NCBI GenBank assembly: GCA_041658325.1
Contig: JBBAAI010000001.1
Coordinates: 279,266 to 343,265 of the forward strand
Reading direction: 5' to 3'
Length of the DNA: 64,000 nt
DNA from: Minisyncoccota bacterium
GTDB taxonomy: Bacteria > Patescibacteriota > Minisyncoccia > Phycocordibacterales > UBA9973
In this document: positions 456 through 35,235 of the stretch, piece after piece
Position numbering within the stretch: position 1 is the stretch's first letter
Layout: each line of letters opens with the position of its first letter
Position numbers and translations under genes: made by a program
Notes under the pieces: generated by a model
The model's input: the letters and a program-made list of their open reading frames with translations, nothing else
Told to the model about the DNA's origin: nothing
Databases searched by the model: none

Positions 456-797
456 ATGGAAGACGCAGACAAGATATTTTTGGAATATGTAGTAAAAGCT
501 CTCGTAGATAATCCGAACGATGTAAAAATTGAAAGGACTGTTGACGAAATGGGTGTGCTCATTACTCTTACCGTAAATCCTGCCGATATGGGTAAGATTA
601 TCGGAAGAATGGGAAATACTGCAAAAGCTATCCGCACCTTGCTTCGCATTATTGGTATGAAGAATAACGCTCGCGTTAATCTAAAGATCAATGAACCGGA
701 AGGAAGCGTAAGACCAGAAAGACCAGCTGGATCCATGAGCTCTGCACCAACGATGAAGACCGTTGATCAGGCGATGGAAGACTTGAAAGGAATTTAA
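456..797 (+). CDS. KH-domain RNA-binding protein (YlqC/UPF0109-like) with C-terminal extension
   Basis: The segment VDEMGVLITLTV...GKIIGRMGNTAKAIRTLL is a KH-type fold with a GxxG motif. It lies between rpsP and trmD, as ylqC does. Confidence 0.65.
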   Translation: MEDADKIFLEYVVKALVDNPNDVKIERTVDEMGVLITLTVNPADMGKIIGRMGNTAKAIRTLLRIIGMKNNARVNLKINEPEGSVRPERPAGSMSSAPTMKTVDQAMEDLKGI

Positions 798-841
798 GTT
801 AAAAAATCCCCCGAAAGGGGGATTTTTGTTATAATATAAAA

Positions 842-1498
842 ATGCGTTTTCATATCATTACAATTTTTCCAGAGATTTTTGATTCATATTTAAATGAGTC
901 TATTATTGGGCGGGCGATAAAAAATAAATTAATTTCAGTAAAATTTTATAATCCAAGAGATTTTATTAAGGCTCCTAAAAATAATTATCGGCCGGTTGAT
1001 GACAAACCTTATGGTGGCGGTCCGGGTATGGTAATGCGAGCAGAGCCAATAATTAAAGCAATAGAAAAAGCCATTTCCAAAACTAAAAACAAAAAGAAAA
1101 CAAAAATTATTTTATTTTCTCCATCTGGTAAAAAGTTTACTACAAGCTATGCAAAAAATTCCGCAAAAAAATATACTGATATTATTTTAATTTCTGGTAG
1201 ATATGAGGGCATAGATGCACGGGTGCAGAAAATGTTTAAAGCAGAAGAAATTTCAATAGGGGATTATGTTTTAACTGGTGGAGAACTGCCAGCTATGGTT
1301 TTAGTAGACTCTATCTCTCGTCAGATTCCGGGAGTTTTAGGCAAATATGAATCCCTAGAAGAAGAACGAGTATCCTCTAGTGAAGTTTATACGCGTCCGG
1401 AAGTTTTAAAATACAAGAAGAAAAATTACAAAGTTCCAAAGGTTTTGCTTTCCGGAAATCATAAAAAAATAGAGGAATGGAGGAAAGGGCAAAACTAA
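842..1498 (+). CDS. trmD: tRNA (guanine37-N1)-methyltransferase
   Basis: The N-terminus MRFHIITIFPEIF and the SPOUT-family motifs ISIGDYVLTGGELPAMVLVDSISR identify TrmD. Confidence 0.9.
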   Translation: MRFHIITIFPEIFDSYLNESIIGRAIKNKLISVKFYNPRDFIKAPKNNYRPVDDKPYGGGPGMVMRAEPIIKAIEKAISKTKNKKKTKIILFSPSGKKFTTSYAKNSAKKYTDIILISGRYEGIDARVQKMFKAEEISIGDYVLTGGELPAMVLVDSISRQIPGVLGKYESLEEERVSSSEVYTRPEVLKYKKKNYKVPKVLLSGNHKKIEEWRKGQN

Positions 1499-1739
1499 AC
1501 AGAAGAATCCACAACATATATTTGACAAAAAAGCTGAAATAGAGTAGGCTGTTTAGGATTCATTGATTGAGTATCGGATGCAATCTCCGTTTTATTATAA
1601 GGCTGTAAAAAGCATTAATTTAATGTTATCCGAAGTTAGCTAATAAGAAGCAAAAAGAAGTAAGAGAAAAGCACCTTTTCGTCTGTTTTTCTTTTATTTT
1701 TGTTTATTTTTCTTGTTGCTATCTGGGGACTTAATCAAC

Positions 1740-4700
1740 ATGCAAGTAGATACAAAGCGTCCAAAGAAGTATTTTTCTAGATACAAAAAACCTTTAGTAG
1801 AATTTCCTAATTTGATTGAAGCTCAAGTAAAGAGTTTCAAATGGTTGGTAGAGACCGGGATCGGGGAAGTCTTTAAAGAATTTTCTCCGATTATTGATTA
1901 TTCTGGAAAAAAATTCCAATTAGAATTTACTTCTTTTTCTCTAGGTGAATCTAAAATTGACGAAAACAATTCAAAAATAAATAAACTTTCCTACCAAGGA
2001 TCTTTGAAGGCGCGGGTAAAATTAACTAACAAAATTTTAGGTACCGTTAAAGAACAAGAAATTTTTATGTCAGAGCTTCCTCTGATGACTCCGCATGGAA
2101 CATTTATTATTAATGGAGTAGAACGTGTCATCGTACCCCAACTTGCGCGATCTTTTGGAGTTTTCTTTACAGAGTCAGAAAGCAAGGGTACTAGATATTT
2201 TGGTGCAAAAATTATTCCAGCTCGTGGTGTCTGGATTGAAATAGAATCTGAATCTGATGGGGGAATTTATATCAGAATAGACAAAAAAAGAAAATTTCCC
2301 GCAACAGCATTGTTGCGTGCTATGGGTTATGAGACGAATGAGATGATTCTAAAGGCATTCTCACAAAATCCGACCGCAGAAGAAACTATCAAAGCTTCTT
2401 TAGCAAAAGACGGAATAAAAAGCTTAAATGAAGCATATATTGAAATTTATAAACGTCTTCGAGATGGTGATATGGCGACTGCTGACAACGCAAAGGAGTT
2501 TATTAATTCTTTATTTACCGCAGAACGTTATGACCTTTCTCCTGTTGGACGATTTAGATTTAATCAACGTTTTGATAAATCAATGGAAGAAGATGAAATG
2601 GCTCGTAGGATAATTTCTAAAGAAGATTTAGTAACTGTGATTTCTCATATTATCGTTTTGAACAATACTCCGTTAGCCAAAGCAGATGATATAGACCACC
2701 TGGGTCAAAGACGTGTGCGTTTTGTTGGAGAAATCCTTCAGCAAAAAGTGCGTACTGGTATGATGCAAATCAAAAGAAACATTCAAGATAGAATGTCTAT
2801 CATTGATGTTGATACAGCTATGCCTATCCAAATCATCAATCAACGTCCACTACAAGCTCGCATTAAAGAATTTTTTACGACTAACCAGCTTTCTCAATTT
2901 ATGGCACAGGAAAATGTGCTTTGTGAAATAGAACATTTGCGCACTCTTTCAGCGCTTGGGCCAGGAGGTCTTACTCGTGAGCGCGCAGGGCTAGAAGTGC
3001 GTGACGTGCACCCTTCTCATTACGGAAGAGTTTGTCCGATTCACACCCCAGAAGGTCCGAACATTGGGCTTATTTTGCATCTTTCAACTTACGCAAAAAT
3101 AAATGATTTCGGAATTATTGAAACTCCTTATGTAAAAGTAAAAAATGGCAAAATTACCAGTGAAATGGTTTATTTAAATGCGCTTGAAGAAGAAAAATAT
3201 AACATTGCACATGCCGGAACTCCTTACGATGAAAACGGAAAAATAACTGAGGAAAAAGTAGAAGCGAGAATTAAGACAGAACCCGGAACAGTTTCTCGCG
3301 ATCAGATTGATTTTATTGATGTAGCTCCCAATCAAGCCTTTTCTATTGCTACCTCAATGATTCCATTTTTGGAACACAATAATGCAAATCGTGCTTTGAT
3401 GGGAAGTAATATGCAGAAACAAGCTGTGCCTTGTGTGCTTCCAGAAATGCCACTCGTTGCAACTGGTGTTGAAAAATTAGCCTCACGGAATTTAGGTAGA
3501 TTGGTTATTTCACAAGAAGAAGGTGTCGTGTCTTATCTAGACGCAAAAAAAATAATTGTTAAAGGAAAGAAAGAAGTAACTTATAATTTGGTTAATTTTT
3601 TAAGAAACAATAATTTCGCTGTTTTTCACCAACGTCCATTGGTAAATATTGGGGATAAAGTAAAAAAAGGTGATGTCTTAGCAGATACTAGTAGTACGGT
3701 GGATGGACAGATTTCAATAGGACAAAATATTTTTGTTGCGTTTTTGTCTTGGTCTGGTTCTACTTACGAAGATGCGATTATAATTTCTGAACGTCTTGTT
3801 AAAAAAAGTAAATTTACTTCAGTTTATGTTGAAGAATTTACTTGCGTGGTTCGTGATACTAAACTTGGGCCTGAAATCACAACTCGAGATATTCCAAATG
3901 TCGGGGAACTCAAATTAAAAGACTTAGATGAAGATGGTATTGTTCGTATTGGAGCAGAAGTAAGAGAGAATGATATTCTAGTTGGGAAAATTACTCCAAA
4001 AGGAGAGACAGAACTTACTCCAGAAGAAAGGCTTCTCCGCTCAATCTTCGCTGAAAAAGCACGTGATGTAAAAGACACTTCTCTTCGTATGGAGCATGGT
4101 AAACGTGGACGTATTATTAATGTAAAGATTTTTTCACGTGACCTAGGACATACTCTTGAGGCTGGAATTATTAAAAAAATTGTTATTGAAGTTGCACAGA
4201 TCAGAAATATTTCAGTTGGAGACAAACTTTCAGGAAGACATGGAAACAAAGGAGTTATCTCAACAATTCTTCCAGAAGAAGATATGCCTTACACCGCTGA
4301 TGGTACGCCAATAGACATTATTCTTTCACCGCTTGGTGTTCCTTCTCGTATGAACCTAGGACAAATTTTAGAAATTCATTTAGGTATGGCCGCAAATAGC
4401 CTTGGTTATCAAGCTATCGTTCCGCCATTCTTGGGAGCTAGGCATGAAGAAATAAAAGAAGAGCTAGTTAAAGCAGGACTTCCAGAAAATGGTAAGTTAA
4501 AACTTTTTGATGGACGCACTGGAGAACCGTTTCAACAAGATATTGCTGTTGGTTATATGTACATGCTCAAACTTCACCACATGGTGGAAGACAAGATTCA
4601 CATGCGTTCGATTGGACCTTATTCTCTCATTACCCAACAACCTCTTGGTGGAAAAGCTCAAGGTGGAGGACAAAGATTTGGAGAAATGGAAGTGTGGGCT

Positions 4701-23133: not shown

Positions 23134-23165
23134 CCCTGCTTGTGGCAGGGGAGTTTCATTTTTCT
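23134..23165. terminator. Bidirectional rho-independent terminator shared by the DUF192 gene (+) and rnpB (-)
   Basis: The hairpin cccctgc-ttgt-gcagggg has U-rich tracts on both strands. Confidence 0.6.
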
Positions 23166-23166
23166 T

Positions 23167-23468
23167 GCAGGTATCTGTAAGCCGAATTTTGTATCCTGAC
23201 CGAAGTCAGGAGATAGCAATTTATCTAGGCCCTTGATTACTCAAAAGCTCAAGCGATTCTCCTCGACCGAAGTCGGGGCACGATCTTGCACACGCGTAGG
23301 TATTTTGCCGTTTCACCCGAACTAAATCGGTTCGTCACTGTTCGCAACCCTGAGATTGCTCTCGACGGGCGTTACCCGCTACGTTTAATCCCGCAAAAGC
23401 GGAGACTATGTGTTCGGACTTTCCTCTCTATGACTTACGCCTTAGAGTAGCTATCCGATGCCTGCCCC
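23167..23468 (-). ncRNA. rnpB: RNase P RNA (bacterial type A, reduced, ~300 nt)
   Basis: On the - strand, GAGGAAAGUCCGAAC matches the P4 5' consensus AGGAAAGUCCGGGC. GGGUAACGCC, GGUGAAACGG and CCUAGAUAAAUUGCUA are present. The P4 3' strand ACAAAAUUCGGCUUA matches the E. coli ACAGAACCCGGCUUA. The region is a GC-rich island with no ORF. Confidence 0.75.
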
Positions 23469-23984: not shown

Positions 23985-24014
23985 TCAAAAAACACCCTTT
24001 CGGGTGTTTTTTGT
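23985..24014 (+). terminator. Rho-independent terminator
   Basis: The hairpin aacaccc-tttc-gggtgtt is followed by TTTTGTTT. It closely resembles the terminator at 23578. Confidence 0.6.
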
Positions 24015-24156
24015 TTGGTGGACTTGGGGCTTCTTTTTTGGAAACAGTTTGCAAGAGAATCTGAGTATTTAGTCAGTATTTTGAAAGAGGTTGAAGTGTC
24101 CAGAAACACAAACACCCCACTAAAATAGTGAGGTGTTAATGTATTAAAATAAGTCG

Positions 24157-24291
24157 TTACTTCTTCTTCGGAGCACGTTGAGAGAGAGCACTTGCGGCAA
24201 CCGACCTTTCAAACTTAGTTGAATGAGGGTTTCGCAACACCGCCGCCGCTTCTGATGCAATCTTCGCACTTGTTTTTCTGCTGTGAGGCAT
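24157..24291 (-). CDS. Candidate small GC-rich ORF (44 aa)
   Basis: The product would be MPHSRKTSAKIASEAAAVLRNPHSTKFERSVAASALSQRAPKKK. The region is ~55% GC against a ~32% background. A hairpin and U-tract downstream (24103-24135) could terminate it. No Shine-Dalgarno is present, and it could instead be a structured RNA. Confidence 0.3.
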   Translation of the reverse strand: MPHSRKTSAKIASEAAAVLRNPHSTKFERSVAASALSQRAPKKK

Positions 24292-24422
24292 AAAGAATTT
24301 ATAGTGTTATTTTATAAATTTATAGAGATGACCGACTTCATCTTCTCTGTATTTATTTTCTAAAACAATAATACTTATGCACCACTAAGTAATTTTGTTT
24401 TAAAAATTTTAATCTTATAAAA

Positions 24423-24713
24423 CTAGCCCCAACATTTAGGGAGTTTCAAGAGATTATCAGTTTGAGTTGAATCAGGAACAGTTTTAACGTATTTTGTTCC
24501 CAAGGGACTTATGGCAGTGATTAAGTACGCTTTGTTGCCATATGCATCAGAAACGTATGCTCGTCCACCTTGGACAACAAAATTATACATTTCTATACGT
24601 GCACTTTTACCTCGTTGATTGGTATTCACGTTGACCCATCCTAATTCGCTTATAGCGGTATGAGGATTTTCATGATTACCACTGTCTTTCTTGATACAAG
24701 TGATTTCTAACAT
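24423..24713 (-). CDS. DUF3892 domain protein
   Basis: The pattern ITCIKKDSGNHENPHTAISELGW...GKSARIEM...GGRAYV...GTKYVKTV...TDNLLKLP matches the conserved spacing of DUF3892, including the terminal TDNLLxLP. Confidence 0.65.
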   Translation of the reverse strand: MLEITCIKKDSGNHENPHTAISELGWVNVNTNQRGKSARIEMYNFVVQGGRAYVSDAYGNKAYLITAISPLGTKYVKTVPDSTQTDNLLKLPKCWG

Positions 24714-24877
24714 ATTTTTATATATGAAATTATTGATAATGCCGTAAATAAGTGGTAAGCTTTGATTGTTGAGGTCTTGGCTCTTTTCCGTCCGACCGAA
24801 TGTGGTGCCATTATATAACGTCCAGTTTATCTGCGGAGGGAACCATTAATATTGATTCCTTAAACACATTGTAACAC

Positions 24878-24898
24878 ATGTAAAGGATTTCTTTACAT
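24878..24898. promoter_or_regulatory. Perfect palindrome ATGTAAAG-gattt-CTTTACAT between divergent DUF3892 and lexA-like genes
   Basis: Read directly from the sequence. Overlapping half-sites TGTAACA and ACATGT lie just upstream. Candidate repressor operator. Confidence 0.35.
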
Positions 24899-24920
24899 AG
24901 GAATGTTCATAAACTGTGGA

Positions 24921-24949
24921 TTGACAGTGGATAACTTGGGTGGTACACT
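24921..24949 (+). promoter_or_regulatory. Candidate sigma-70 promoter (TTGACA-17-TACACT) for the lexA-like gene
   Basis: A consensus -35 with 17-nt spacing. The -10 ends 14 nt before the ATG at 24964. Confidence 0.45.
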
Positions 24950-24963
24950 TATATCAATTCTCA

Positions 24964-25569
24964 ATGAGTCAATTACATAAAAATCAAATAAAACTCTTAA
25001 AATATTTAGAAGGAATCCAAGATTTTGATGGTATCAGTCTTTGGGATATTGCCAGAGAAGCAGAGCTTAATAACGCTCAGACAGTAAAACACCACCTTTC
25101 TCAATTAGAAAAATTAGGATATCTTAGAAGGGATTTAAAAAATTCTTCTTTTGAAATTCTTAAAAGTCCCATTGAAGACATTGCTTATATTAATCTTTTA
25201 GGATTCGCCGTGTGTGGCAATAGTGGAGAATTTTTTTCGGAAGAAAATCTGGAAGATAAAATTGCAGTTTCAACAAAGTTGTTGGGTATTTCAAATCTTC
25301 AGGATACTTTTGCAGTTAAAGCAAAAGGTGATTCTATGCTCCCTGAGGTGTTAGATAATGATTTAGTTATATTTCAAAAACAAGATGATATAGGTAATGC
25401 GGATATAGGTTTAGTTATAGACAACGGAGAGCCGAAGATTAAACAAGTTATTAAAAATAAAAATGAAATAATTTTAAGGTCTTATAACAAAAGTTACCCA
25501 GACAAAATCATCACAAAAAAAGACCTTTGTGTCCTTGGATTGGCTAAGAAAATAATTCATAGTATTTAG
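24964..25569 (+). CDS. LexA/phage CI-like repressor, S24 peptidase family
   Basis: The N-terminus is a winged-helix region (LWDIAREAELNNAQTVKHHLSQLEKLGYL). The C-terminal S24 domain carries the GDSM serine motif (AVKAKGDSMLPEV) and the catalytic-Lys region EPKIKQVI. I chose the ATG at 24964 because the annotated GTG at 24940 lies inside the predicted promoter. Confidence 0.8.
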   Translation: MSQLHKNQIKLLKYLEGIQDFDGISLWDIAREAELNNAQTVKHHLSQLEKLGYLRRDLKNSSFEILKSPIEDIAYINLLGFAVCGNSGEFFSEENLEDKIAVSTKLLGISNLQDTFAVKAKGDSMLPEVLDNDLVIFQKQDDIGNADIGLVIDNGEPKIKQVIKNKNEIILRSYNKSYPDKIITKKDLCVLGLAKKIIHSI

Positions 25570-25738
25570 TGAAACTTTTTTCTGTTTTAGTTTTTTTATC
25601 TTCAAGCCACAATTCAAAAAGAATCTCAGCCAATTTATCATCATTGTCTCTAAGTTTTTAAATTTGTTCCTCAGAAAGTTTTTTAAGCAATTTTTTTCCA
25701 AGAGCTTTTTTATATTATTTTAAAGAAAGCATTTTTGA

Positions 25739-26179
25739 TTATAGCCATTCATTCACCCCTCCATGACGAGAACAAGTACCTCTCCTATTTTGGCTAAAAC
25801 TGTAAGTGCCATCACCACATCGAGCAGAAGCTCCAGCTGGTACTGAATTTGAATAGGCTGGAGAATGGACACTATTGCCATAAGTATTTGTGTAATAATT
25901 ATCATTCGAAAGAGAACTTGTATTATTGCTTGGTGTTGTCTTTGGGGCTACCACACTTGGTGCTGTAAATTGGTGTGGTTGAGTATTATATGAATTATAT
26001 GTAGGAATTGTCTGTATTTCTGGATTTACTACTTGGTTGCTTGAATTACCGCCTGAACCTAAAATAACTAAAAATACTGCAATTAGACCAGTTCCGATAT
26101 ATCTTTTTTTCTTATACCAAGGTCTTTCGTCTTTAATATTGGGAATATTTTTTTTTTCGTTTTCCATATTTAATAACAA
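25739..26179 (-). CDS. DUF3761-like secreted/membrane-anchored protein
   Basis: An N-terminal TM helix is followed by a Ser/Thr/Asn-rich linker. The C-terminal CGDGTYSFSQNRRGTCSRHGGVNEWL matches the DUF3761 C-terminal motif. Confidence 0.55.
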   Translation of the reverse strand: MLLNMENEKKNIPNIKDERPWYKKKRYIGTGLIAVFLVILGSGGNSSNQVVNPEIQTIPTYNSYNTQPHQFTAPSVVAPKTTPSNNTSSLSNDNYYTNTYGNSVHSPAYSNSVPAGASARCGDGTYSFSQNRRGTCSRHGGVNEWL

Positions 26180-27108
26180 TTTATACTTCCGATTGTGCCA
26201 AATTCATCAGAATGAGAACTGAAGCTACAATTAAGAGGTTTTACTTGTTGAGAATATAATTGATTTAAACTACTTTGTAGTGCCTGTGTCTTTTTTAAAT
26301 CAGATACAGCGATAACTAACTGCGACCAGAAATTTTTGTACATTTCGTCCTTTGTGTTTGTTTGGCTCATATATTGAGTCATCGCTAATTTAACACCACC
26401 ATCATAAAGTTTTTGCCAATAATTTTGATATTCAGTCAGTATTTGAATTTCACTGTTATATTCTGCTTCTGATGCTGAAGATTTTGCGGAAAATTTTATA
26501 TATTCAATATTAAGTGCAGATATTTTTTCGTTATTGATGTGGTTTTTTATATCAGAAAAGATTTTCCGATAAAAATCAACAATCTGACTTTTATCAAGAT
26601 TGTAGGCTTCAATAAAAATACTATATGCATGACTAACAGAAGAATCTGTTTCACTAGCCATTAAAGAATTAGTGCTTGAGATAAGCCCGTTTAATATACT
26701 CTCTCTTTGGGAGAGTAGGGGCGTCATGTCATTATCAATCCACTGTATGATTGCTTTATAGGAATTGATTTGTGCATTTATAGCTGAAAGAATTGGCTCT
26801 CTGAAATTTTTAGCTGTGGGTGCAACAACTTCTGTTTTTATAGGTGGAGTTTGCACACTAACTTGTGTTGAAGTTCCGTTTGTTTCTTTTTTAGGAGCAG
26901 TATTTTTTGATACTTCTTCGCTGATTGTTTTTTCATTATTAACTGAAACTTCTTCTGTCGCTGTGGTGATTACGTTAGATTTAGGAATATTTTGTGGAGA
27001 TTTAGATATTTTGTGGGCGATAAAATAACCGCCACCGCCAAAAACAACTGCACTAACAATAATTGCTATTAAAATTGGTATTTGTATAAAGCCTTTTTGA
27101 TTTTTCAT
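26170..27108 (-). CDS. Hypothetical secreted protein with pilin-like hydrophobic N-terminus
   Basis: The N-terminus MKNQKGFIQIPILIAIIVSAVVFGG resembles a prepilin-like leader, but the +5 Glu is absent. The rest has no recognised domain. Confidence 0.45.
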   Translation of the reverse strand: MKNQKGFIQIPILIAIIVSAVVFGGGGYFIAHKISKSPQNIPKSNVITTATEEVSVNNEKTISEEVSKNTAPKKETNGTSTQVSVQTPPIKTEVVAPTAKNFREPILSAINAQINSYKAIIQWIDNDMTPLLSQRESILNGLISSTNSLMASETDSSVSHAYSIFIEAYNLDKSQIVDFYRKIFSDIKNHINNEKISALNIEYIKFSAKSSASEAEYNSEIQILTEYQNYWQKLYDGGVKLAMTQYMSQTNTKDEMYKNFWSQLVIAVSDLKKTQALQSSLNQLYSQQVKPLNCSFSSHSDEFGTIGSINCY

Positions 27109-27152
27109 ATTACACTTTTTTTAATTAATAATGTTAATTTGTAATTAGTTAA

Positions 27153-27584
27153 CTATTCTTCATCATTACTACCAAATGTCTTTAAATCAATTAATTTTGA
27201 CTTATACATAATTTCTATTTCTTTGTTTTCAGCATCACTTGTAAATGTGTGGAAAAAATATGTTTCTCCTGTATAAATATCTTTTATTGAATAATGACCC
27301 ACAGCCCCAGAATTCTTTTTATCTTTAAATAAAAGCACGCTTAAGTATAATGCTTCTATACAACTTTTTTGTTTTTGACTGTATAAGGCATGATTTGAAA
27401 CTGTCATTATTCCAGTATCATCTATGTTTGATTTTGGTGCTTCCGCACTCATTTTTTCATAAGCCTTAACACACCCTTCTTGCCTCGCTAGTAAATCTTT
27501 TGTTTGTTTCCCTGAGATATAAAAGATTGTAAAAGCTAAAACCGCGACTCCGATAAAAATAAAAAGTATATTTTGTTTCTTCAT
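27153..27584 (-). CDS. Hypothetical membrane-anchored protein
   Basis: An ORF with an N-terminal TM helix in the same minus-strand run as the flanking small genes. Confidence 0.45.
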   Translation of the reverse strand: MKKQNILFIFIGVAVLAFTIFYISGKQTKDLLARQEGCVKAYEKMSAEAPKSNIDDTGIMTVSNHALYSQKQKSCIEALYLSVLLFKDKKNSGAVGHYSIKDIYTGETYFFHTFTSDAENKEIEIMYKSKLIDLKTFGSNDEE

Positions 27585-27588
27585 GTTA

Positions 27589-27780
27589 TTAATTATTTTT
27601 TTTATTTTGGTAAGACCAATAAATGAACATTAAGAAAATTATTATTCCACCAGTTAAGGAGAAAGCTATGAACTTCTCTCCACCTGTTAAATCTTCTCCA
27701 TTTCTTATGAAATGACCAAAAGAAATAAGCAAGAACCACCAGTTGCGACTCAAAAATTTACCAAAAGTTTCTTTTTCCAT
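27589..27780 (-). CDS. Small hypothetical membrane protein (63 aa)
   Basis: It has two predicted hydrophobic helices and is the first gene of the minus-strand run 27780 to 25739. Confidence 0.3.
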   Translation of the reverse strand: MEKETFGKFLSRNWWFLLISFGHFIRNGEDLTGGEKFIAFSLTGGIIIFLMFIYWSYQNKKNN

Positions 27781-28196
27781 GTGCTTATATTTTGTTTATT
27801 ATTAATAATTCCCGCAGTTGGTAAACAAAAAGCCCACCACTAGGAAAGCCCGAAGGCTTTTATGCAAGTTTCCTCGCATAACGCGTTCAACGCCCCAATG
27901 ATGGGTTTTTTATGTTGAACGCGATTCATAACCATACTCTACTGTTCTTACAATGGAGGTTAGGTCTTATATTTATTTGATTGTTTAGGTATTATATCAC
28001 TTTGATATAGATTTACCATGCCATAGAGCATTATAGGCTTGCTATAGCAATAGCAGGTAAAATTATAGCTCATAAGAAAATCCTTTGTTTATAACCATGG
28101 GGACGGGAGGAGGGACAAATAAACATCACTAGAAAGAATATACTCATCCCTAAATCCATGCCTTTTTAAACTTTTTGTATTACAATTCCAATAGTT

Positions 28197-29075
28197 ATGA
28201 TTAATCCAAAAACGTCAAAGCCAAGTGAATTATTTGAGGGGTTAATAGAAATTGAATTACAACTTCAAAAGAAACTGGAAGAATTAGAAAATACCTACAA
28301 TGAAACCTATCAAAAAGTCAGTGTTGATTTTAAGGTAGCGGGTATTTTAGAATACGAACATGATTCTGGTTCACTGGGTGAAGTAATAAAACATGCAAAT
28401 GAAATTATAAAAATAATTGAGAATATTTTGCACAGTGAAACTATCAATAAAGCCTACACAAAAAGACTTAAGTCAATAACAGAAATTGACAGAAAAACAG
28501 GTTTGAAAAATTTTAAACAAGGGTGGTTAAAAGATGTTGGTAACCATGATTACATAACCGTGTTAATGGATGCCCTATCGGTTGATGAGTGGATTGATAA
28601 ATGTAAAGAAGTTGCACATTATTTAGCAGATTTTGTTGGAGAAAAAAATCCACTTGTTGAAGATTTAAATTTAAATAAAACTTCAAAAGAAAAAACGGAA
28701 ATAAAAGGAATAGATAATAGTAGTGAGGAAATTTACTTAAAAACTTTAGGCATAAAAATTAAGGGAGATTGTATTGCTAAGGGAACAATGAATCTTAAAA
28801 AAGTATTTAATCCCACAGAAAAAGCTTTGATATATTTTTTATTTTTTAGATTTTTAAAGAACAAAGATGAATGTTTTACAATAGATAGTTTAGCAAAAGA
28901 ACTAAAAAAATCAGAAGCTTATATAAAGAATAGCCTTACCAATATATATAAAATAATTAGAAAGACTATGTCACAAGCAAATACTTCTATAAAATGGGAA
29001 CCTCTCATAAAAAATGAACCGAGACGTGGGTATCACTTGAATCCTAGACTTTTTATAGAGGTCATAAAAAAATAA
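28197..29075 (+). CDS. Hypothetical regulator with OmpR/PhoB-type winged-helix C-terminal domain
   Basis: The C-terminus WEPLIKNEPRRGYHLNP resembles the Trans_reg_C recognition wing (xVRGxGYRL). There is no receiver domain. The N-terminal 200 aa are unrecognised. Confidence 0.4.
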   Translation: MINPKTSKPSELFEGLIEIELQLQKKLEELENTYNETYQKVSVDFKVAGILEYEHDSGSLGEVIKHANEIIKIIENILHSETINKAYTKRLKSITEIDRKTGLKNFKQGWLKDVGNHDYITVLMDALSVDEWIDKCKEVAHYLADFVGEKNPLVEDLNLNKTSKEKTEIKGIDNSSEEIYLKTLGIKIKGDCIAKGTMNLKKVFNPTEKALIYFLFFRFLKNKDECFTIDSLAKELKKSEAYIKNSLTNIYKIIRKTMSQANTSIKWEPLIKNEPRRGYHLNPRLFIEVIKK

Positions 29076-29240
29076 CAATTTTAAAAAAAGTTTTAGAATA
29101 TTAATCCTTTGTGTAAAAAACACCTTTCTAAATAATGGTGTTTTTTTTATTGTAATAAATGAGTCACAATTTTGTGATTTTTTTTCATGTCAAAATTAGA
29201 ATAATCCTAAATAAAGGAGATTATAAATAATTAAAAAAAG

Positions 29241-29456
29241 ATGAGAAGCATTGAAAGAAAATTTAAGTATGTTCAGAGAAAAAATCCTTACTGGTCATCA
29301 TTCACTTGCTTTGCCAACACAGTACGTGGGAGGAACTTTAGTAGAGATAGAATTAGGAAATATTTCAACGAATTGGTAGACAAAGAAGAATATGCAAAAG
29401 ACGAGAAGGGGCAAATATTAAAATACTTGTACGACTTAACAAAAGACATGCTGTAG
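29241..29456 (+). CDS. Hypothetical small basic protein (71 aa)
   Basis: ORF only. Confidence 0.3.
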   Translation: MRSIERKFKYVQRKNPYWSSFTCFANTVRGRNFSRDRIRKYFNELVDKEEYAKDEKGQILKYLYDLTKDML

Positions 29457-29472
29457 CGTACCAGTTTTAGAT

Positions 29473-29937
29473 GTGAATGTAGATTATAAACCAGACAGAA
29501 TTCTAAAATGGAGTACTCTGTCCACTAGTAAAAAAATTATGATAAATGACGTAAAAAAGTATTATTTTAGCGAAGCTGTGGCAAAAGAAATAGGAGTTGA
29601 AGAAGCTATTATGTTTAGCAACATATTCTTTTGGGTTAATCACAACAAAAAGAAAAAGAGCGATTATCATTATTATCAAGGCAAGTATTGGATGTTTAAT
29701 ACTGTGCTTAAATTTAAGGAGCAATACTCTTTCTGGACAGTTGCAACAATTAGAAGAATTCTTAATAACCTCCAAAAGAATTCTTATATAGAAGCTGGAA
29801 GATTTAACAAGCATGGGTATGACAAAACCAAATGGTACACAGTTGCCGAAAAAGCCTTTGATGTTGTTGAGAACGACAAAGACTTTGTTGAAACCATTAA
29901 TTCGTTAAGCGAAGAACAGCCAACCAATACCAGATAA
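29473..29937 (+). CDS. Hypothetical protein (154 aa), possible HTH
   Basis: ORF with coding-like composition. Contains SEAVAKEIGVEEAIM, a possible HTH. Confidence 0.4.
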   Translation: MNVDYKPDRILKWSTLSTSKKIMINDVKKYYFSEAVAKEIGVEEAIMFSNIFFWVNHNKKKKSDYHYYQGKYWMFNTVLKFKEQYSFWTVATIRRILNNLQKNSYIEAGRFNKHGYDKTKWYTVAEKAFDVVENDKDFVETINSLSEEQPTNTR

Positions 29938-30008
29938 TATACACAAATAGTATACACATATAGTAATTGATATTATTCATCTCTCCTGCGGATAGATGAA
30001 CCCCCTAT

Positions 30009-30041
30009 AAGATTTATATTCTGAACAGGAATAAATATCTT
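30009..30041. promoter_or_regulatory. Imperfect 13-bp inverted repeat flanking a 7-bp core (AAGATTTATATTC-tgaacag-GAATAAATATCTT)
   Basis: Read directly from the sequence, ~290 bp upstream of the serine recombinase. This geometry is typical of serine-recombinase sites. Confidence 0.3.
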
Positions 30042-30326
30042 GGTTGGCCTAATACGATTATGGTGGTGCGAAGTTAAAACTATTTAGGTGGTTTTTTCCA
30101 ACAATGCGTCAAAAATAAATTAGAAATGATATAATGAAGGAGCTACACGAAAGGTTAATAAGCGAAATTAATTTTATGCCTAGAGAGGGGCAACGAGACC
30201 TTTTGTGTAGCTACAGAAAGTCGCTTCGTTGTCCCTCTTTCGGTATTACTAATAACACGCCTGAAGATGCATCGCTAGATTATTTGGCAAGTATTCTGGT
30301 TGGGGCATTCTTGGATAAAAAAGAAC

Positions 30327-31880
30327 ATGAACATAACCAATTACACAAATCAAAAGAAAGCAGTAATATATTGCCGAGTATCAACCAAAGAACAAGTTGA
30401 CGAAGGCAACAGTTTAAGTACCCAAGAGAAAATCTGTAGAGAATATTGTTTTAAAAATGAATATGATATTTTCCAAACTTTTCTTGAGCAAGGGGAAAGT
30501 GCAAAGACGGCAGACCGTACAGAGCTTCAAAAGCTTCTTGCCTTTTGTGCGGATAAAAAGAATCAAGTAAAAGCAGTAGTAATTTATAAACTGGATAGAT
30601 TGTCTCGCAATACAGATGATTATAGTCAACTTCGTCTTTTACTAAAAAGATATGGAGTGGAAATTAAATCTACATCAGAACATTTTGAAAATAACCCTGT
30701 AGGTCGTTTTATGGAGAATACTATGGCGAATATCGCACAATTTGATAATGACATCCGCTCTGAACGCTGTGCTGGTGGAATGAAAGATGCCATGCGTGAT
30801 GGTAGGTATGTGTGGATGGCTACGGTGGGATATGACAACGTAAAAATAGCAGGGAGGGCAACTATTGCACAAAACGAAATAATGGCTCCATTGATAAAGA
30901 AAACATTTGAACTTATCGCCTTAAATACTTATCCAACGGAAGAAGTTCGAAGAATGATAACAAAAGAGGGGTTGTTAAATCGTAAAGGAAATCCTTTTTC
31001 AAAGGGATATTTTTATAAAATGCTTACCAATGAACTTTTTGCAGGGTGGATTGTTAAGTTTGGAGAAAGGCATAAAGGTACTTCTTTTACACCGATTATC
31101 TCGGAAGAACTTTTTAACCAAGTACAAAGGATATTAAAAAGAAAGGGGAGAAAACATTCTGCTTATCTTACAGATAATCCAGATTTTCCACTTCGTAAGT
31201 TTATAAAAAATGATACAGGTAAAGTACTAACGGGTAGTTGGTCTAGCGGAAGAGATAGAAAATATCCTTTTTATCGTTTTGGTAACGACAAATCAAGTCT
31301 TAATAGAGATACTTTTGAAAAAGACTTTAAAGAATTTATGGATAGATATAAATTAGATGAGAAACATTATCAAAAACTTAAAATACTTGTCCGAGACAAT
31401 CTTACAAAAGCAACATCTGAGCAGAGGAAAGAAGCCGAGCAACTTCAAAAACATATTGATGAATTAAATGAAAAACAATCTGCAATCATTAAGAAGAATC
31501 TTGATGGGGTAATTAATGATAATGTTTTAAAACAACAGCTAGAGCTTATTGAAAATCAATTAACAGATGCAACAGCTTCTCTTTCTAACATTCCAAATAG
31601 TGATGCTGACTACGAAAAGATGCTTGATTTTATGGAAGAATATTTAAAACAACCAAGCAAGATATGGTCTGAAATAAAAAAGGTAGGGATAAAAATTAAA
31701 CTTCAATGGTTCCAATTTCCTTTAGGTTTGACGTTTGAAAATAAAATATTTGGAACCAAGGAAGTAGCTAGTGTTTTCAAAGTAAAAGACGCTTTTTCAG
31801 CGTCTTCGTACTCTAGGGTGGACCGTACAGGACTCGAACCTGCCACCCCCTCATTGCAAATGAGGTGCTCTACCAGATGA
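30327..31880 (+). CDS. Large serine recombinase (resolvase/invertase-type catalytic domain plus recombinase and coiled-coil domains)
   Basis: The catalytic motif AVIYCRVSTKEQ contains the nucleophile Ser. The resolvase core YKLDRLSRN is followed by a ~350-aa C-terminal extension with a coiled-coil. The last ~20 codons read antisense through tRNA-Ala. Confidence 0.85.
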   Translation: MNITNYTNQKKAVIYCRVSTKEQVDEGNSLSTQEKICREYCFKNEYDIFQTFLEQGESAKTADRTELQKLLAFCADKKNQVKAVVIYKLDRLSRNTDDYSQLRLLLKRYGVEIKSTSEHFENNPVGRFMENTMANIAQFDNDIRSERCAGGMKDAMRDGRYVWMATVGYDNVKIAGRATIAQNEIMAPLIKKTFELIALNTYPTEEVRRMITKEGLLNRKGNPFSKGYFYKMLTNELFAGWIVKFGERHKGTSFTPIISEELFNQVQRILKRKGRKHSAYLTDNPDFPLRKFIKNDTGKVLTGSWSSGRDRKYPFYRFGNDKSSLNRDTFEKDFKEFMDRYKLDEKHYQKLKILVRDNLTKATSEQRKEAEQLQKHIDELNEKQSAIIKKNLDGVINDNVLKQQLELIENQLTDATASLSNIPNSDADYEKMLDFMEEYLKQPSKIWSEIKKVGIKIKLQWFQFPLGLTFENKIFGTKEVASVFKVKDAFSASSYSRVDRTGLEPATPSLQMRCSTR

Positions 31881-31891
31881 GCTAACGGCCC
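31819..31891 (-). tRNA. tRNA-Ala (anticodon TGC)
   Basis: The cloverleaf was read by hand. The acceptor is GGGCCGT/ACGGTCC with the G3:U70 Ala identity pair. The anticodon loop is TTTGCAA and the T-loop is TTCGAGT. The discriminator is A. Confidence 0.85.
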
Positions 31892-31939
31892 ATATTATTT
31901 TTTCAATCCCGCTTTTCTTATCCTATGTTGCTTTTACGA

Positions 31940-31975
31940 GGCGCTACAAATGAACTAATGGCCCATATTTACCCA
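31940..31975 (-). pseudogene. Degenerate duplicate of the tRNA-Ala 5' half (D-arm and anticodon stem)
   Basis: gaggcgctacaaatgaactaatggcccatat aligns to the tRNA region gaggtgctctaccagatgagctaacggcccatat. It lies 48 bp outside the tRNA 5' end in the same orientation. Confidence 0.5.
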
Positions 31976-32043
31976 AAGATATTCTATCTTATTTTGCCAA
32001 TAATGCAAATTTTTTTATTATTTTTTAGTGTACAATAAGTAAC

Positions 32044-33072
32044 ATGCTTTATAAATTTTTTACTAATTCAGAAAGAGCTTGGCAGGCGATGTTTGAGAGT
32101 ATGAAGGGGGCTCAAGTATCAATATATTTAGAAATGTATATTTTTGTAGATGATATGCAAGAATTTAATTTTTTAAAATTATTGAAAGAAAAAGCAAAAA
32201 ATGGAGTTAAAGTAAAAATAATCTTAGATTCTTTTGGTAGTTCCGATTTAAGCAAAAAAGCAATCTTAGGCTTAAAAGATGCAGGAGCAGAAGTTTTCTT
32301 TTTTAGTAACTTTTTACATCGAACGCATCGCAAAATCCTTATAGTAGATGAAAAGGTGGCATTCATAGGAGGAGTTAATTTTCGACAAAATATGAATAAA
32401 TGGAGAGATCTAGTAATAAGGGTGGGAGGTCGTTTGGTTAAAAGTGCTATTCGTTCTTTTGCTAAGGCTTATATTGTTTCTGGTGGTAAAGACCAATCTT
32501 TGATTGTATTGAATAAGGAGGTTGTTTCTTCAAGGGCTAGAGCTTGGCTTATAGAGCATTTTCCAATTAGTAAAAAATTTCGTTTAAAAAAAATTTACAA
32601 AGAAGCACTTAGAAATGCGGGGGAAAGTGTTTTTTTAATTAGTCCGTATTTTATCCCTAAATATTGGCTTATGCGAGCGATGCATCGAGCTGTGTTGCGG
32701 GGAATAAAAGTCGAAGTATTTATTCCCAAAATTACTGATAATTTTTTTGTTGATCGGGTAAATTATTTTTTTATATATAAAATGTCTAAACTTGGAGTAA
32801 ATTTTTATCTTGGTTCCAAAATGAATCATGCTAAAGCGTTGATCGTAGATGAAAAGGAGGGGATGGTGGGAAGTAATAATTTAGATCGTCTTTCTTTTGA
32901 ATTTAATTCTGAAATTGGAGTTTTTATAAAAGATGAGAAAGCCGTTCAGGAACTTTTAATAATTGTTAATCAATGGAAAAATGAATCTACTCTGTTTGAT
33001 TTAAAACAATACAGGCCTAGATGGATTGATTATTTACTATCACCTGTTATTTATTTATTGTTTTTTCTTTAA
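32044..33072 (+). CDS. Phospholipase D-superfamily protein with two HKD motifs (cardiolipin synthase/PLD-like)
   Basis: HKD motifs HRKILIVDEKVAFIGGVNF and NHAKALIVDEKEGMVGSNNLD. It lies between tRNA-Ala and tRNA-Asn. Confidence 0.7.
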   Translation: MLYKFFTNSERAWQAMFESMKGAQVSIYLEMYIFVDDMQEFNFLKLLKEKAKNGVKVKIILDSFGSSDLSKKAILGLKDAGAEVFFFSNFLHRTHRKILIVDEKVAFIGGVNFRQNMNKWRDLVIRVGGRLVKSAIRSFAKAYIVSGGKDQSLIVLNKEVVSSRARAWLIEHFPISKKFRLKKIYKEALRNAGESVFLISPYFIPKYWLMRAMHRAVLRGIKVEVFIPKITDNFFVDRVNYFFIYKMSKLGVNFYLGSKMNHAKALIVDEKEGMVGSNNLDRLSFEFNSEIGVFIKDEKAVQELLIIVNQWKNESTLFDLKQYRPRWIDYLLSPVIYLLFFL

Positions 33073-33095
33073 TTTCTGATAATATAAGAATAAAT

Positions 33096-33170
33096 TCCGG
33101 GGTAGCTCAGCGGTAGAGCGGTCGCCTGTTAAGCGATTGGTCGTAGGTTCGATCCCTACCCCCGGAGCCA
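33096..33170 (+). tRNA. tRNA-Asn (anticodon GTT), CCA encoded
   Basis: The cloverleaf was read by hand. The acceptor is TCCGGGG/CCCCGGA. The anticodon loop is CTGTTAA and the T-loop is TTCGATC. A terminal CCA is present. Confidence 0.85.
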
Positions 33171-34362: not shown

Positions 34363-35235
34363 ATGATTACAAAAAATTTTTTATGGTTATCTGCCTTTGT
34401 CTTTCTTGTAATTGGTTTTTTCGCCGGTCAGTATTTTGGTATTATCCCAGTCTTCGCTAGTGATAATGATCAAGATGGAATAATCGATTCGAAAGATGTT
34501 GATGACGACAATGATACTATTTTTGATGTGGATGATAAACAGCCATTTGATCACGACAATGACGGGATAGAAGATGACGCCGATGACAGTGATGGTAGTG
34601 AGGTTAAGGTGACAGAAGATAAAAAAGATGACGGAGATAATGAAGAGAAAGTAGACGATATAGGAGCAGTATCTTCAATTTCTGTTTCTGGAAAAGAAAG
34701 TTCTGTGATTTGGTCAGTAGTAGGGTATTCAAAAAATGGATTTAAGATTATTTGGTCAAAAAGTAGCAAGCCGACATACCCTACAGGAGAAAAAGATAAA
34801 TATATTTATTTGTCTGATCCAAAAAGTAGAACCGCCAGCTTAGATGCTTTTAATGGTCCTGGTACATATTATGTGAGGGTGTGTGAATATCTCGGTAGTG
34901 TGTGTGGAGTTTATTCAAACGAGATACGTGTTTCTTTAGGTGATAGCAACGATTCTAAACCCGTTTCTTCAATTTCTGTTACTGGAAGCGGTAGTTCTGT
35001 AGCTTGGTCAGTGGATGGGTATTCAAAAAATGGATTCAAGATTGTTTGGTCAAAGAATAGTCAACCAACCTATCCTACTAGAGAAGGAGATAAATACATA
35101 TATTTATCAGAACCAAACAGTAGAAATACAAGCTTAGATGCATTTAGTGGATCTGGTATGTACTATGTAAGAGTGTGTGAATATCTTGGTGGTGCATGTG
35201 GGGTTTATTCAAATCAAATACAAGTTTCTTTATAA
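34363..35235 (+). CDS. Membrane-anchored protein with Asp-rich Ca-binding-like segment and two tandem ~95-aa repeat domains
   Basis: An N-terminal TM helix is followed by DNDQDGIIDSKDVDDDNDTIFDVDD (thrombospondin-type-3-like). The duplicated domain SSISV(S/T)G..S(V/A).WSV.GYSKNGFKI.WSK...PTYPT...DKYIYLS...YYVRVCEYLG..CGVYSN occurs twice. The DNA-level repeat is ~34670-34950 vs ~34965-35235. Confidence 0.55.
   Translation: MITKNFLWLSAFVFLVIGFFAGQYFGIIPVFASDNDQDGIIDSKDVDDDNDTIFDVDDKQPFDHDNDGIEDDADDSDGSEVKVTEDKKDDGDNEEKVDDIGAVSSISVSGKESSVIWSVVGYSKNGFKIIWSKSSKPTYPTGEKDKYIYLSDPKSRTASLDAFNGPGTYYVRVCEYLGSVCGVYSNEIRVSLGDSNDSKPVSSISVTGSGSSVAWSVDGYSKNGFKIVWSKNSQPTYPTREGDKYIYLSEPNSRNTSLDAFSGSGMYYVRVCEYLGGACGVYSNQIQVSL

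Follow-up and report, generated by a model that had tools for sequence, protein, structure and literature searches.

How does the gene for a large serine recombinase come to end inside a tRNA gene, and what has this arrangement done to both? The question is raised by a 64,000-nt stretch of a Minisyncoccota bacterium genome (assembly GCA_041658325.1, contig JBBAAI010000001.1, positions 279,266 to 343,265; hereafter the window, to whose numbering all coordinates refer unless another locus is named), where such a gene (30327–31880, + strand) converges on the host tRNA-Ala(UGC) gene (31816–31892, − strand; ARAGORN, Rfam). Our analysis makes it highly probable that positions 24017–31822 are an integrated mobile element of ~7.8 kb, inserted with its large serine recombinase at the 3′ end of tRNA-Ala(UGC) in a Patescibacteria (Nomurabacteria-like) genome. 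The original prediction, made from the letters alone, had proposed a serine-recombinase integrative element at a tRNA gene; the attL and attR sites now bear this out, as do related genomes in which the site is empty, cargo that varies and relatives that are apparently circular.

In its integrated form the recombinase comprises 517 amino acids (aa) and matches the Pfam families Resolvase (1.6e-32) and Recombinase (5e-11). Its catalytic motif RVSTKEQ, invariant in the recombinase family, includes V18-S19, with the serine nucleophile. The stop codon TGA (31878–31880) corresponds, on the opposite strand, to the conserved TCA of the tRNA D-arm; since the stop lies inside the antisense D-arm, the last 18 codons of the recombinase (31824–31877) are antisense tRNA-Ala. 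The overlap of the two genes had been noted before and measures 62–65 bp.

The native 3′ end of the gene lies at the other end of the element. A tblastn search with the alternative C-terminal tails of full-length homologues matched window 24018–24122 (+ strand; VDLGLLFWKQFARESEYLVSILKEVEVSRNTNTPL; 66% identity to homologue P0056, E=2e-12), and the complete displaced 3′ end (24018–24128, + strand) reads VD, then LGLLFWKQFARESEYLVSILKEVEVSRNTNTPLK, then a stop. The 34 native tail codons are intact at this distal end (24024–24125), and the remnant is open for 36 codons (chance 0.054) with the conserved motif FWxxFAxExxYLxxIL. To judge from these matches, the displaced 3′ end is the tail that the recombinase would carry when the element is circular.

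Both ends of the element carry the 7-mer GGTGGAC in the same orientation, at 24017–24023 (attL) and 31816–31822 (attR). The attR copy occupies tRNA-Ala positions 69–75 on the + strand, the core being the reverse complement of G69–C75. The DNA reads ...AAAAAACACCCTTTCGGGTGTTTTTTGTTTG-GTGGAC-TTGGGG... at attL and ...CGTACTCTAGG-GTGGAC-CGTACAGG... at the tRNA junction. The other split elements that we examined have this core too. Intact attP copies of relatives mostly have it as GTGGAC, with two exceptions, L001 (GTGCGC) and L052 (GTAGAC). When 31823 is joined to 24024, as in a circle, the result is a 533-aa recombinase with the family's normal tail (predicted attP junction ...CGTACTCTAGGGTGGACTTGGGGCTTC...). 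When 24016 is joined to 31823, the result is a tRNA-Ala ending in ...GGTCCACCA, followed by four bases and then a canonical hairpin and T-run terminator (predicted empty attB ...GTTTTTTGTTTGGTGGACCGTACAGG...). Both reconstructed junctions appear to fit what would be expected of attP and attB. The core-centred 60-mers are CGGGTGTTTTTTGTTTGGTGGACTTGGGGCTTCTTTTTTGG (attL), GCGTCTTCGTACTCTAGGGTGGACCGTACAGGACTCGAACC (attR), GCGTCTTCGTACTCTAGGGTGGACTTGGGGCTTCTTTTTTGG (attP) and CGGGTGTTTTTTGTTTGGTGGACCGTACAGGACTCGAACC (attB): they have the 7-bp core in common and unrelated arms on all four sides, as expected of serine-integrase att sites. No copy of the tRNA 3′ half occurs anywhere in the window, the repeat being limited to the 7-bp core, and a generic repeat finder run on the window did not detect the cores. 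Base composition shows no break at the element (G+C ~30–38% throughout). The element is delimited to the base. Its earlier limits (24423–31975) give way to a true span of ~24017–31822, the left end having been ~400 bp off and the displaced recombinase tail missed, and the crossover, which had been placed within the tRNA 5′ half, falls instead in the 7-bp core at the tRNA 3′ end.

We propose that the recombinase joined attP, inside the 3′ end of its own gene, to an attB consisting of tRNA-Ala(UGC) G69–C75 and the tRNA trailer. Serine recombinases exchange strands at a 2-bp centre and need almost no homology, which would explain why no tRNA fragment was duplicated. Because the recombinase gene spans the attachment site, insertion would swap the tail of the enzyme: the integrated form would end in 18 antisense-tRNA codons (517 aa) with the native 34-codon helical tail left at attL, while excision would rejoin the gene (533 aa) and restore both the tRNA-CCA and the native terminator.

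The two tails recur across the recombinase family. A word-limited homologue search gave >2000 matches, and C-termini were compared for the best 120, which are 57–100% identical and mostly unnamed or labelled Nomurabacteria, Paceibacterota or Parcubacteria. The strict antisense tRNA-Ala pattern VDxxG[LFI]EP..LQ..STR, always in the same frame, is matched by 69/120, and several more homologues have other tRNA-like tails. Endings of this first class, such as ...VD-PTGLEPATPSLQMRCSTR, ...VD-PSGFEPLTSSLQKRRSTN and ...VD-PRRFELLTFALQKHCSTS, are one frame read through different tRNA-Ala sequences: the D codon (GAC or GAT) requires U70 of the alanine identity pair, and LQ or VQ spells the UGC anticodon loop. 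A second class (~30/120) diverges precisely after 'VD' into the conserved helix ..FWxxFAxExxYLxxIL.., and ~11/120 are cut short or end within a few residues of the junction. A scan of metagenomes added 80 loci at 33–82% identity to the recombinase, and those with the 3′ end on the contig fall into the same two tail classes. Members at ≥43% identity adjoin tRNA-Ala (UGC, also GGC and CGC); other members adjoin tRNA-Arg(CCU), tRNA-Ile(UAU) or tRNA-Glu, and a group at 33–38% identity adjoins tRNA-Glu(UUC/CUC) and, in one case, tRNA-Gln. Among relatives at 33–58% identity, the recombinase gene runs out antisense within genes for tRNA-Glu, Arg, Ile or Gln or within other tRNA-Ala genes. The nearest relatives in IMG/VR are ≤33% identical; one prophage contig there (L121, 32% identity) overlaps tRNA-Ala(GGC). 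The recombinase family is apparently a large and undescribed clade of serine integrases that target tRNA ends and carry attP inside the integrase gene.

The same split of the gene delimits elements in other genomes, where the tail remnant and the tRNA junction lie at 4074 and 11477 in L009/L041 (7.4 kb; cargo NUDIX, PNPOx-like and AAA_15/21 ATPase), 2618 and 7213 in L016 (4.6 kb), 3308 and 11468 in L058 (8.2 kb), 2337 and 9107 in L083 (6.8 kb), 4 and 4201 in L056 (4.2 kb; at tRNA-Ala(CGC), with an apparently disrupted recombinase) and 3588 and 6735 in L033 (3.1 kb; decayed, with just the last ~38 recombinase codons left). The tail remnants at attL are open for 27–47 codons in 7/7 elements, the product of the per-locus chances at local composition being ~2e-8. 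Common to the delimited elements are the recombinase, a small overlapping upstream ORF (open reading frame) and sometimes a 71-aa protein; no other genes are shared. The element of homologue P0002 (recombinase 88% identical) exceeds 10 kb and carries a restriction-modification system and a tyrosine integrase.

Is the tRNA end vacant elsewhere? An exact match to the 3′ part of tRNA-Ala, taken from one genome per species, gave 29 species loci with an identical sequence, mostly in Nomurabacteria and Paceibacteria. The recombinase family occupies three of them: L016, L037 (the same metagenome-assembled genome contig as L010/L041, among the contigs that carry the L009 recombinase) and the decayed L033. 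At least seven loci are empty, with a hairpin and T-run directly after tRNA-Ala (L012, L021, L023, L026, L030, L035, L040), and most of the remaining loci have unrelated sequence there. Terminators of the same kind form the host-side attL arms in the window, L033 and L083. One candidate for an empty allele of L009, L029, was rejected: the 50 bp that the two loci have in common are the 3′ end of a second recombinase family, which indicates accretion rather than an empty site. The first 90 loci included no circular contig. Two Logan contigs, L201 (12,223 bp) and L202 (10,408 bp), have identical first and last 30 nt, an overlap of k−1 if the assembler used k=31, as we assume, and in the homologous L201 the sequences of the two L202 ends lie next to each other. 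Both contigs carry an unsplit recombinase gene, attP ('...tatg GTGGAC ttcga...') and the antisense hairpin discussed below. We read L201 and L202 as apparently circular molecules, on evidence that is strong and not absolute.

These comparisons leave almost no credence for a recombinase that is a resident or domesticated invertase or resolvase, inherited vertically beside tRNA-Ala rather than serving a mobile element as its integrase. Its 57–88% identity across many Patescibacteria would suit such an enzyme, and in L029 the unrelated second recombinase at this tRNA has inverted repeats of 130 bp on both sides, which suggest inversion there. However, the cores of the window element are direct and not inverted, the gene is missing from most genomes with the identical tRNA, the cargo between the cores differs completely among genomes, and apparently circular copies exist. 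The DNA invertase that the original prediction named as its own alternative is largely contradicted on the same grounds.

Several observations weigh against integration as we describe it. The comparison with related genomes that had been suggested as a check found empty tRNA-Ala sites in most of them, but no such site whose left flank is exactly that of the window: around rnpB, gene order in the nearest genomes has been rearranged, and L025, L030 and L035 have rnpB or PLD in common with the window, but in rearranged form. An identical-protein look-up for PLD returned nothing beyond the contig of the window itself and a 1.26-kb fragment whose ends fall inside the two tRNAs. The evidence for the window element is that of assembled sequence, and the crossover is placed within the 7-bp core, not to the exact dinucleotide. 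Terminal overlaps of de Bruijn contigs could also arise from tandem copies. Furthermore, intact alternative-tail genes also occur in chromosomal regions of conjugative type (L001, L002, L004 and the P0056 contig), where the att site is evidently unused; in L001 the core itself has diverged, as noted above. These genes are surrounded by conjugation-type genes (TrwB/VirD4-like, VirB4-like, ArdC, RadC), and some lie next to a second serine recombinase, which in turn borders on a comM-like gene at that gene's 3′ end. Lastly, the decayed L033 still has an open tail remnant; openness may partly stem from recent integration and not from selection.

We infer excision of the window element and its current activity from sequence. 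Alternatively, the element may have integrated as described and now be a fixed, immobile island whose intact parts reflect recent arrival rather than ongoing activity. We consider this unlikely. Neither junction reads nor an empty allele are at hand for the exact locus and decayed relatives exist, L033 having lost most of its recombinase and L056 having an apparently disrupted one, but the window element has kept its recombinase, Rep-like gene, repressor and small ORF intact, along with the tail remnant and the core repeats. Different cargo also occupies the same site in close relatives, which points to recent turnover.

An insertion at this position has consequences for the tRNA gene. The integrated tRNA-Ala is intact through C75, with the encoded A76 lost (CCA to CCC). 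Most empty sites encode CCA, while occupied sites have CCC or CCT after A73, so that in occupied sites the tRNA depends on CCA addition. Integration has also moved the original intrinsic terminator of tRNA-Ala 7.8 kb away from the tRNA: it now lies in the host DNA of the attL left arm (23988–24012, − strand; A-run, ACACCC/GGGTGT stem, T-run) and has equivalents in the empty sites of relatives. Antisense inside the recombinase ORF, a second terminator-like hairpin, AAGACGC/GCGTCTT with a U-rich tract (31786–31806, − strand), lies 12–40 nt past the tRNA 3′ end and reads GAAGACGC-UGAAAAA-GCGUCUU and then UUACUUUG (31806 to 31786). No other 30-nt hairpin in the recombinase gene is as stable.

A hairpin with a U-rich tract is found at the same position in 27 non-identical family sequences, and in 17 of these <2% of the other 30-nt windows of the 1.5-kb gene are as stable. 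The stems vary (GACGC/GCGTC, GAGGC/GCCTC, AACCGG/CCGGTT, CCGCAT/ATGCGG, CAGATGG/CCATCTG, GACTTCTT/AAGAAGTC), and the peptide encoded over the hairpin varies accordingly (KDAFSAS, KEAFLPL, KPVISGS, KSAFLDA). Fixed-column covariation is modest (0.258 versus 0.177 in the controls; 3/500 shuffles), since from one sequence to another the pairing is offset by a base and the U-tract also permits pairing in slid registers; the per-sequence energy ranking is more informative here. Unsplit attP copies have the hairpin as well, so the element brings it along. Its position and conservation suggest that, while integrated, the element supplies a substitute terminator from within the recombinase ORF, which would end tRNA-Ala transcription once the native terminator has been displaced. 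The hairpin may also limit read-through into the antisense strand of the recombinase gene.

On its other side the tRNA is accompanied by a degenerate copy of its own 5′ half (31934–31969, − strand, including five upstream bases; roughly tRNA positions 1–37), which the original prediction had taken as a trace of recombination within the tRNA. The copy itself is real: 31950–31969 and 31877–31896 are 18/20 identical, and a gapped alignment of 31935–31969 to 31862–31896 beats 2000/2000 shuffles. It is not a trace of this element's recombination, lying outside the element and being present in another genome, L024, with shared derived differences, in a setting where the neighbouring PLD-region DNA is 69% identical. 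It is highly improbable that recombination took place within the tRNA 5′ half with the copy (31940–31975 as originally drawn) marking the att site, perhaps together with a palindrome at 30009–30041. Statistical reality is what the copy offers in favour of this reading. It lies on the promoter side of the tRNA, 48 bp away and outside the element, and persists in the diverged L024, and the recombinase junctions of relatives are all at GTGGAC of the tRNA 3′ end, with none at the copy. The palindrome likewise exists, imperfect at ~10/12, and is not an att site: it has no counterpart in L009, which has no intergenic spacer at that position.

The 5′-half copy is old, outside the element and not one of its att sites; it is instead a host feature of the tRNA leader. 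A likely tRNA-Ala promoter, TTTGCA-17-TAGAAT (31981–32009, − strand), lies in sequence conserved upstream of tRNA-Ala in relatives, which have it directly in front of the tRNA. As the copy is downstream of this promoter, it should belong to a tRNA leader of ~80 nt. A full pseudo-tRNA from tandem duplication was rejected as its origin, the 3′-half counterpart showing no similarity. Between the window and L024 (~75–120 nt past the tRNA pattern there), the copy is ~84% conserved, above the 69% of the adjacent PLD region, and its first flanking base co-varies with the flank of the true tRNA (A in the window, G in L024), which hints at constraint or gene conversion. At L010 and L011 (contig ends at 11550) and at L200 (= window 31865–33122), assemblies break exactly at or inside tRNA-Ala. 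Such breaks would fit mixed occupied and empty alleles, or a tRNA repeat, in those populations.

Could the exchange of tails matter for the enzyme? The AlphaFold (AF2) model of P0056, a homologue with the alternative tail, has a predicted local distance difference test (pLDDT) score of 78 and contains a catalytic domain, long helix, recombinase domain, beta-hairpins and helical hairpin; its C-terminal end is one long helix (residues 486–518, pLDDT ~85–88). In Foldseek, ~510 columns of this model align to the SPbeta, Bxb1 and phiC31 integrases, and the LI integrase C-terminal domain is matched as well. Zn_ribbon_recom was not matched in Pfam and the Cys ligands are absent from the sequence; across the family, the zinc-ribbon region lacks cysteines while the predicted fold retains beta-hairpins and coiled-coil. 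Intact-tail members down to 36% identity (L116) keep a helical motif of the same type. The tail swap may have a functional consequence.

Alternatively, the swap may be functionless, with attP overlapping the gene's 3′ end for compactness and both forms of the protein behaving alike. This explanation is a serious one and falls only somewhat short of an even prospect. The antisense-tRNA tail is set by the tRNA sequence and the reading frame and is not selected, and a trivial explanation for the same overlap was weighed by McMurdie et al. for DsiB (PMC3146451). On the other hand, the helical motif recurs in intact-tail members as distant as L116, the tail is kept open at attL in seven elements and it is predicted as a confident helix.

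A second protein to consider is the 88-aa product of the ORF that overlaps the recombinase start (30134–30400, + strand). The position of this ORF is conserved across much of the family, its motif is ..KEGQRDLLCSNKKSLRCPSLGI..SEDxALDYLAxILVEAFLDKKEYERN, and the ALDYLAxILVEAFL-type helix is recognisable in many members, some of them distant. It matched no family in Pfam, PHROGs or NCBIfam. Serine integrases need a separate recombination directionality factor for excision, and by its position and conservation the 88-aa ORF is our best candidate for a directionality or regulatory factor. As a tentative and rather doubtful extension, the tail exchange may act as a built-in state sensor and thus be a new way to set serine-integrase directionality, with the LOOT RNA described below as a regulator or replication RNA of a small-element subgroup. 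The 533-aa form with its C-terminal helix would then be episomal and integration-competent and the 517-aa form with the tRNA-encoded tail chromosomal, and the 88-aa protein, through a weakly similar helix (ALDYLAxILVEAF versus E.xYLxxILKE), would license excision in trans on the tail-less form. The alignment of that helix with the tail is short and weak (hhalign, 17 columns, P=5.5e-4, probability 30%) and serves as no more than a lead.

The remaining genes of the element are variable cargo and a few candidates for its regulation and replication. From the left end, a terminator-like hairpin on the − strand (24111–24137) lies just past the tail stop codon and the convergent 44-aa ORF, which is basic cargo (24157–24291, − strand; phrog_5079, 1.7e-11, function unknown). 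There follow a DUF3892 protein (24423–24713, − strand; Pfam 2e-11), a CI/LexA-like repressor with an S24 autopeptidase domain (24940–25569, + strand; Pfam Peptidase_S24 4.4e-19; PHROG transcriptional repressor 2.3e-21; 75 bits with the NCBIfam lexA model, under its cut-off) and a membrane-anchored DUF3761 protein (25739–26179, − strand; Pfam 5e-25), a family also present on the apparently circular L202; all three had been named in the original prediction and agree with Pfam. Three ORFs of 312, 143 and 63 aa with N-terminal hydrophobic segments (26170–27780, − strand) have no family match, and homologues of them were not found in the other delimited elements. Beyond the LOOT RNA (27845–27966, − strand) and divergent from it, a 292-aa protein (28197–29075, + strand) is without a match in Pfam, PHROGs, NCBIfam or PADLOC, and its earlier label as an OmpR-type winged helix-turn-helix protein is unsupported in the first three. 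Next come a 71-aa protein (29241–29456, + strand; blastp 5e-19 to L056 and 5e-13 to L016) and a replication-initiator-like winged-helix protein of the N-terminal domain type (29473–29937, + strand; phrog_11233 1.7e-27; DnaD-like helicase loader 7.8e-18).

No virion or conjugation genes were found among the element's ORFs, whose PHROG matches are the repressor, the Rep-like protein and proteins of unknown function; PADLOC found no defence system in the cargo, Pfam no Phage_integrase domain in the element, and a search for iterons near LOOT or upstream of the 88-aa ORF gave nothing convincing. The CI/LexA-like repressor and the Rep-like protein suggest inducible excision and episomal replication, which they would provide alongside the putative directionality or regulatory role of the 88-aa protein. 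The element is best described as small and integrative, probably self-replicating and possibly mobilisable.

The LOOT RNA (Rfam RF03000) scores 75.3 bits against a gathering threshold of 46.4. It recurs inside delimited elements (L009 8373–8492, L016 3532–3654, L083 6455–6574, L058 7049–7161) and upstream of the recombinase in L042 (3548–3669) and L043 (1–102), with an upstream distance that is usually 1–3 kb and reaches 6.3 kb in L042. The larger relatives, both the apparent circles L201 and L202 and those in conjugative-type contexts, lack it. A literature search retrieved no description of LOOT RNA, and these serine-recombinase elements may be the first genomic context for this orphan RNA. 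In the 4.6-kb element of L016, an S-adenosylmethionine (SAM) riboswitch (2886–2992, + strand; 61 bits) lies between LOOT and the small ORF.

The element's surroundings agree with the original prediction in their tRNA and rnpB genes, with coordinates from ARAGORN and Rfam: beside tRNA-Ala, a tRNA-Asn lies at 33096–33170 (+ strand; ARAGORN, Rfam) and RNase P RNA at 23162–23466 (− strand; Rfam). The latter match is short (305 nt versus a 367-position model; score 109.3 versus gathering 100) and looks like a reduced form. Farther to the right, a 290-aa ORF (34363–35235) contains a tandem 270-nt direct repeat at 34669–35232 (80% identity, 294-nt spacing).

The 3′ end of tRNA-Ala also attracts other recombinases. 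In L029 (283–1887), and also in L013, L014 and L038, a second, unrelated large serine recombinase (~23% identity; in L029, 534 aa) likewise runs antisense into this tRNA-Ala, in another frame, and ends ...SLGGPYRTRTCHPLIANEVLYQMS*. The L029 gene has at its flank an inverted copy (~130 bp) of its own 3′ end (repeats 148–283 and 1690–1825), which suggests an invertible or insertion-sequence-like unit, and the attL flank of L009 holds 50 bp of this second recombinase's 3′ end. A third serine recombinase, distantly related, is found ~700 nt away from this 3′ end in L027 (386–1168), L028 (192–974) and L032 (4389–5171), given with the tRNA pattern on the + strand; these three loci share the identical flank ttaccgcgcggagcgcggacgc..., and in L020 the flank alone is shared. 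The tRNA-Ala 3′ end looks like a hotspot for several recombinase families. Outside tRNA genes, a comM-like Mg-chelatase gene is overlapped at its 3′ end by a further large serine recombinase gene that converges on it (L004 1125–3651; P0056 contig 616–3142): this is the same design of an integrase that reads into its target, here a protein-coding one.

How far does this arrangement depart from known systems? Phage large serine integrases (A118/LI, Bxb1, phiC31, SPbeta) resemble the recombinase in domain order, fold and short att sites with a minimal core, and an accessory directionality factor is expected in both. Identity is just 25–30% to the nearest integrases of cultured phages (A118, Javan prophages, Paenibacillus phages), and the Cys ligands are missing here. 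Phage attP sites are outside the int ORF, and phage targets are protein-coding or intergenic sites; the present element has its attP within int and targets the end of a tRNA gene. The tyrosine integrase of SSV1-type archaeal viruses does have attP inside the int gene, which is split by integration and restored by excision; here, in contrast, the exchange affects only the last 34 codons, which leaves a long ORF in the chromosome. In mycobacteriophage BPs and its relatives, which show integration-dependent immunity, attP lies in a coding region and integration alters the C-terminus of the repressor (PMC4557955). The likeness is that integration alters a protein's C-terminus, in BPs thereby its behaviour; the difference is that BPs pairs a repressor gene with a tyrosine integrase, while here the recombinase itself is altered, with at most a putative effect on its stability or activity.

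Islander-type islands share with the element a landing site at a tRNA 3′ end, a tRNA that is kept functional and an integrase gene at the tRNA-proximal end. They differ in having a tyrosine enzyme, and here there is no island-borne or displaced tRNA fragment, only the 7-bp core. The Islander (PMC4383910) and TIGER (PMC7192596) papers held that the use of tRNA genes by serine integrases was unknown or unproven; the latter listed 14/297 serine-integrase islands at t(m)RNA (transfer or transfer-messenger RNA) genes, calling them previously unreported and in need of experimental proof (PMC7192596).

The closest precedent is the ssrA islands of Dehalococcoides, where a CcrB-like recombinase, DsiB, always overlaps attL at its 3′ end, with the stop codon outside the island, and was speculated to be fully functional solely on the circular form (McMurdie et al. 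2011; PMC3146451). Compared by description, both systems have a large serine recombinase that integrates at the 3′ end of a small stable-RNA gene and an integrase ORF that overlaps the att site at its 3′ end, reading into the RNA gene. Both also show successive insertions at one site (here in the attL flank of L009), and CcrB is the best NCBIfam model for our recombinase as well, far under its cut-off. The targets differ (tmRNA, ssrA, there; tRNA-Ala here and other tRNAs in sister clades), as do the hosts (Dehalococcoides versus Patescibacteria), the direct repeats (~20 bp versus the 7-bp core) and the gene next to the recombinase (the small serine recombinase DsiA versus the unrelated 88-aa ORF in that position). 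The DsiB module has six genes, including DsiA and RecF-, ParB- and Mom-like genes, none of which is among the element's ORFs in Pfam, PHROGs or NCBIfam. Here, in addition, the displaced tail has been identified, is conserved and is seen rejoined on apparently circular contigs, and there are a putative antisense terminator and the LOOT RNA. The element is a variant of the DsiB-type arrangement and not a new kind of system; a literature search found no paper describing this Patescibacteria recombinase family.

As diverse serine integrases with a short, conserved attB at tRNA ends, these enzymes are a potential set for genome engineering, and the tail remnant is a simple marker for delimiting islands in the hard-to-annotate genomes of the candidate phyla radiation (CPR). 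The orphan LOOT RNA gains a genomic home. The overlap that was left open for DsiB is filled in here, with the missing C-terminus now located at attL and rejoined on apparently circular contigs, and the substitute terminator embedded antisense in the recombinase gene would show how the host tRNA gene stays working. For the family as a whole, a clade of tRNA-targeting serine integrases with >2000 homologues in a word-limited search, mostly from Patescibacteria, challenges the generalisation drawn from the island surveys: its members use the 3′ ends of tRNA-Ala, Glu, Arg, Ile and Gln with one shared design.

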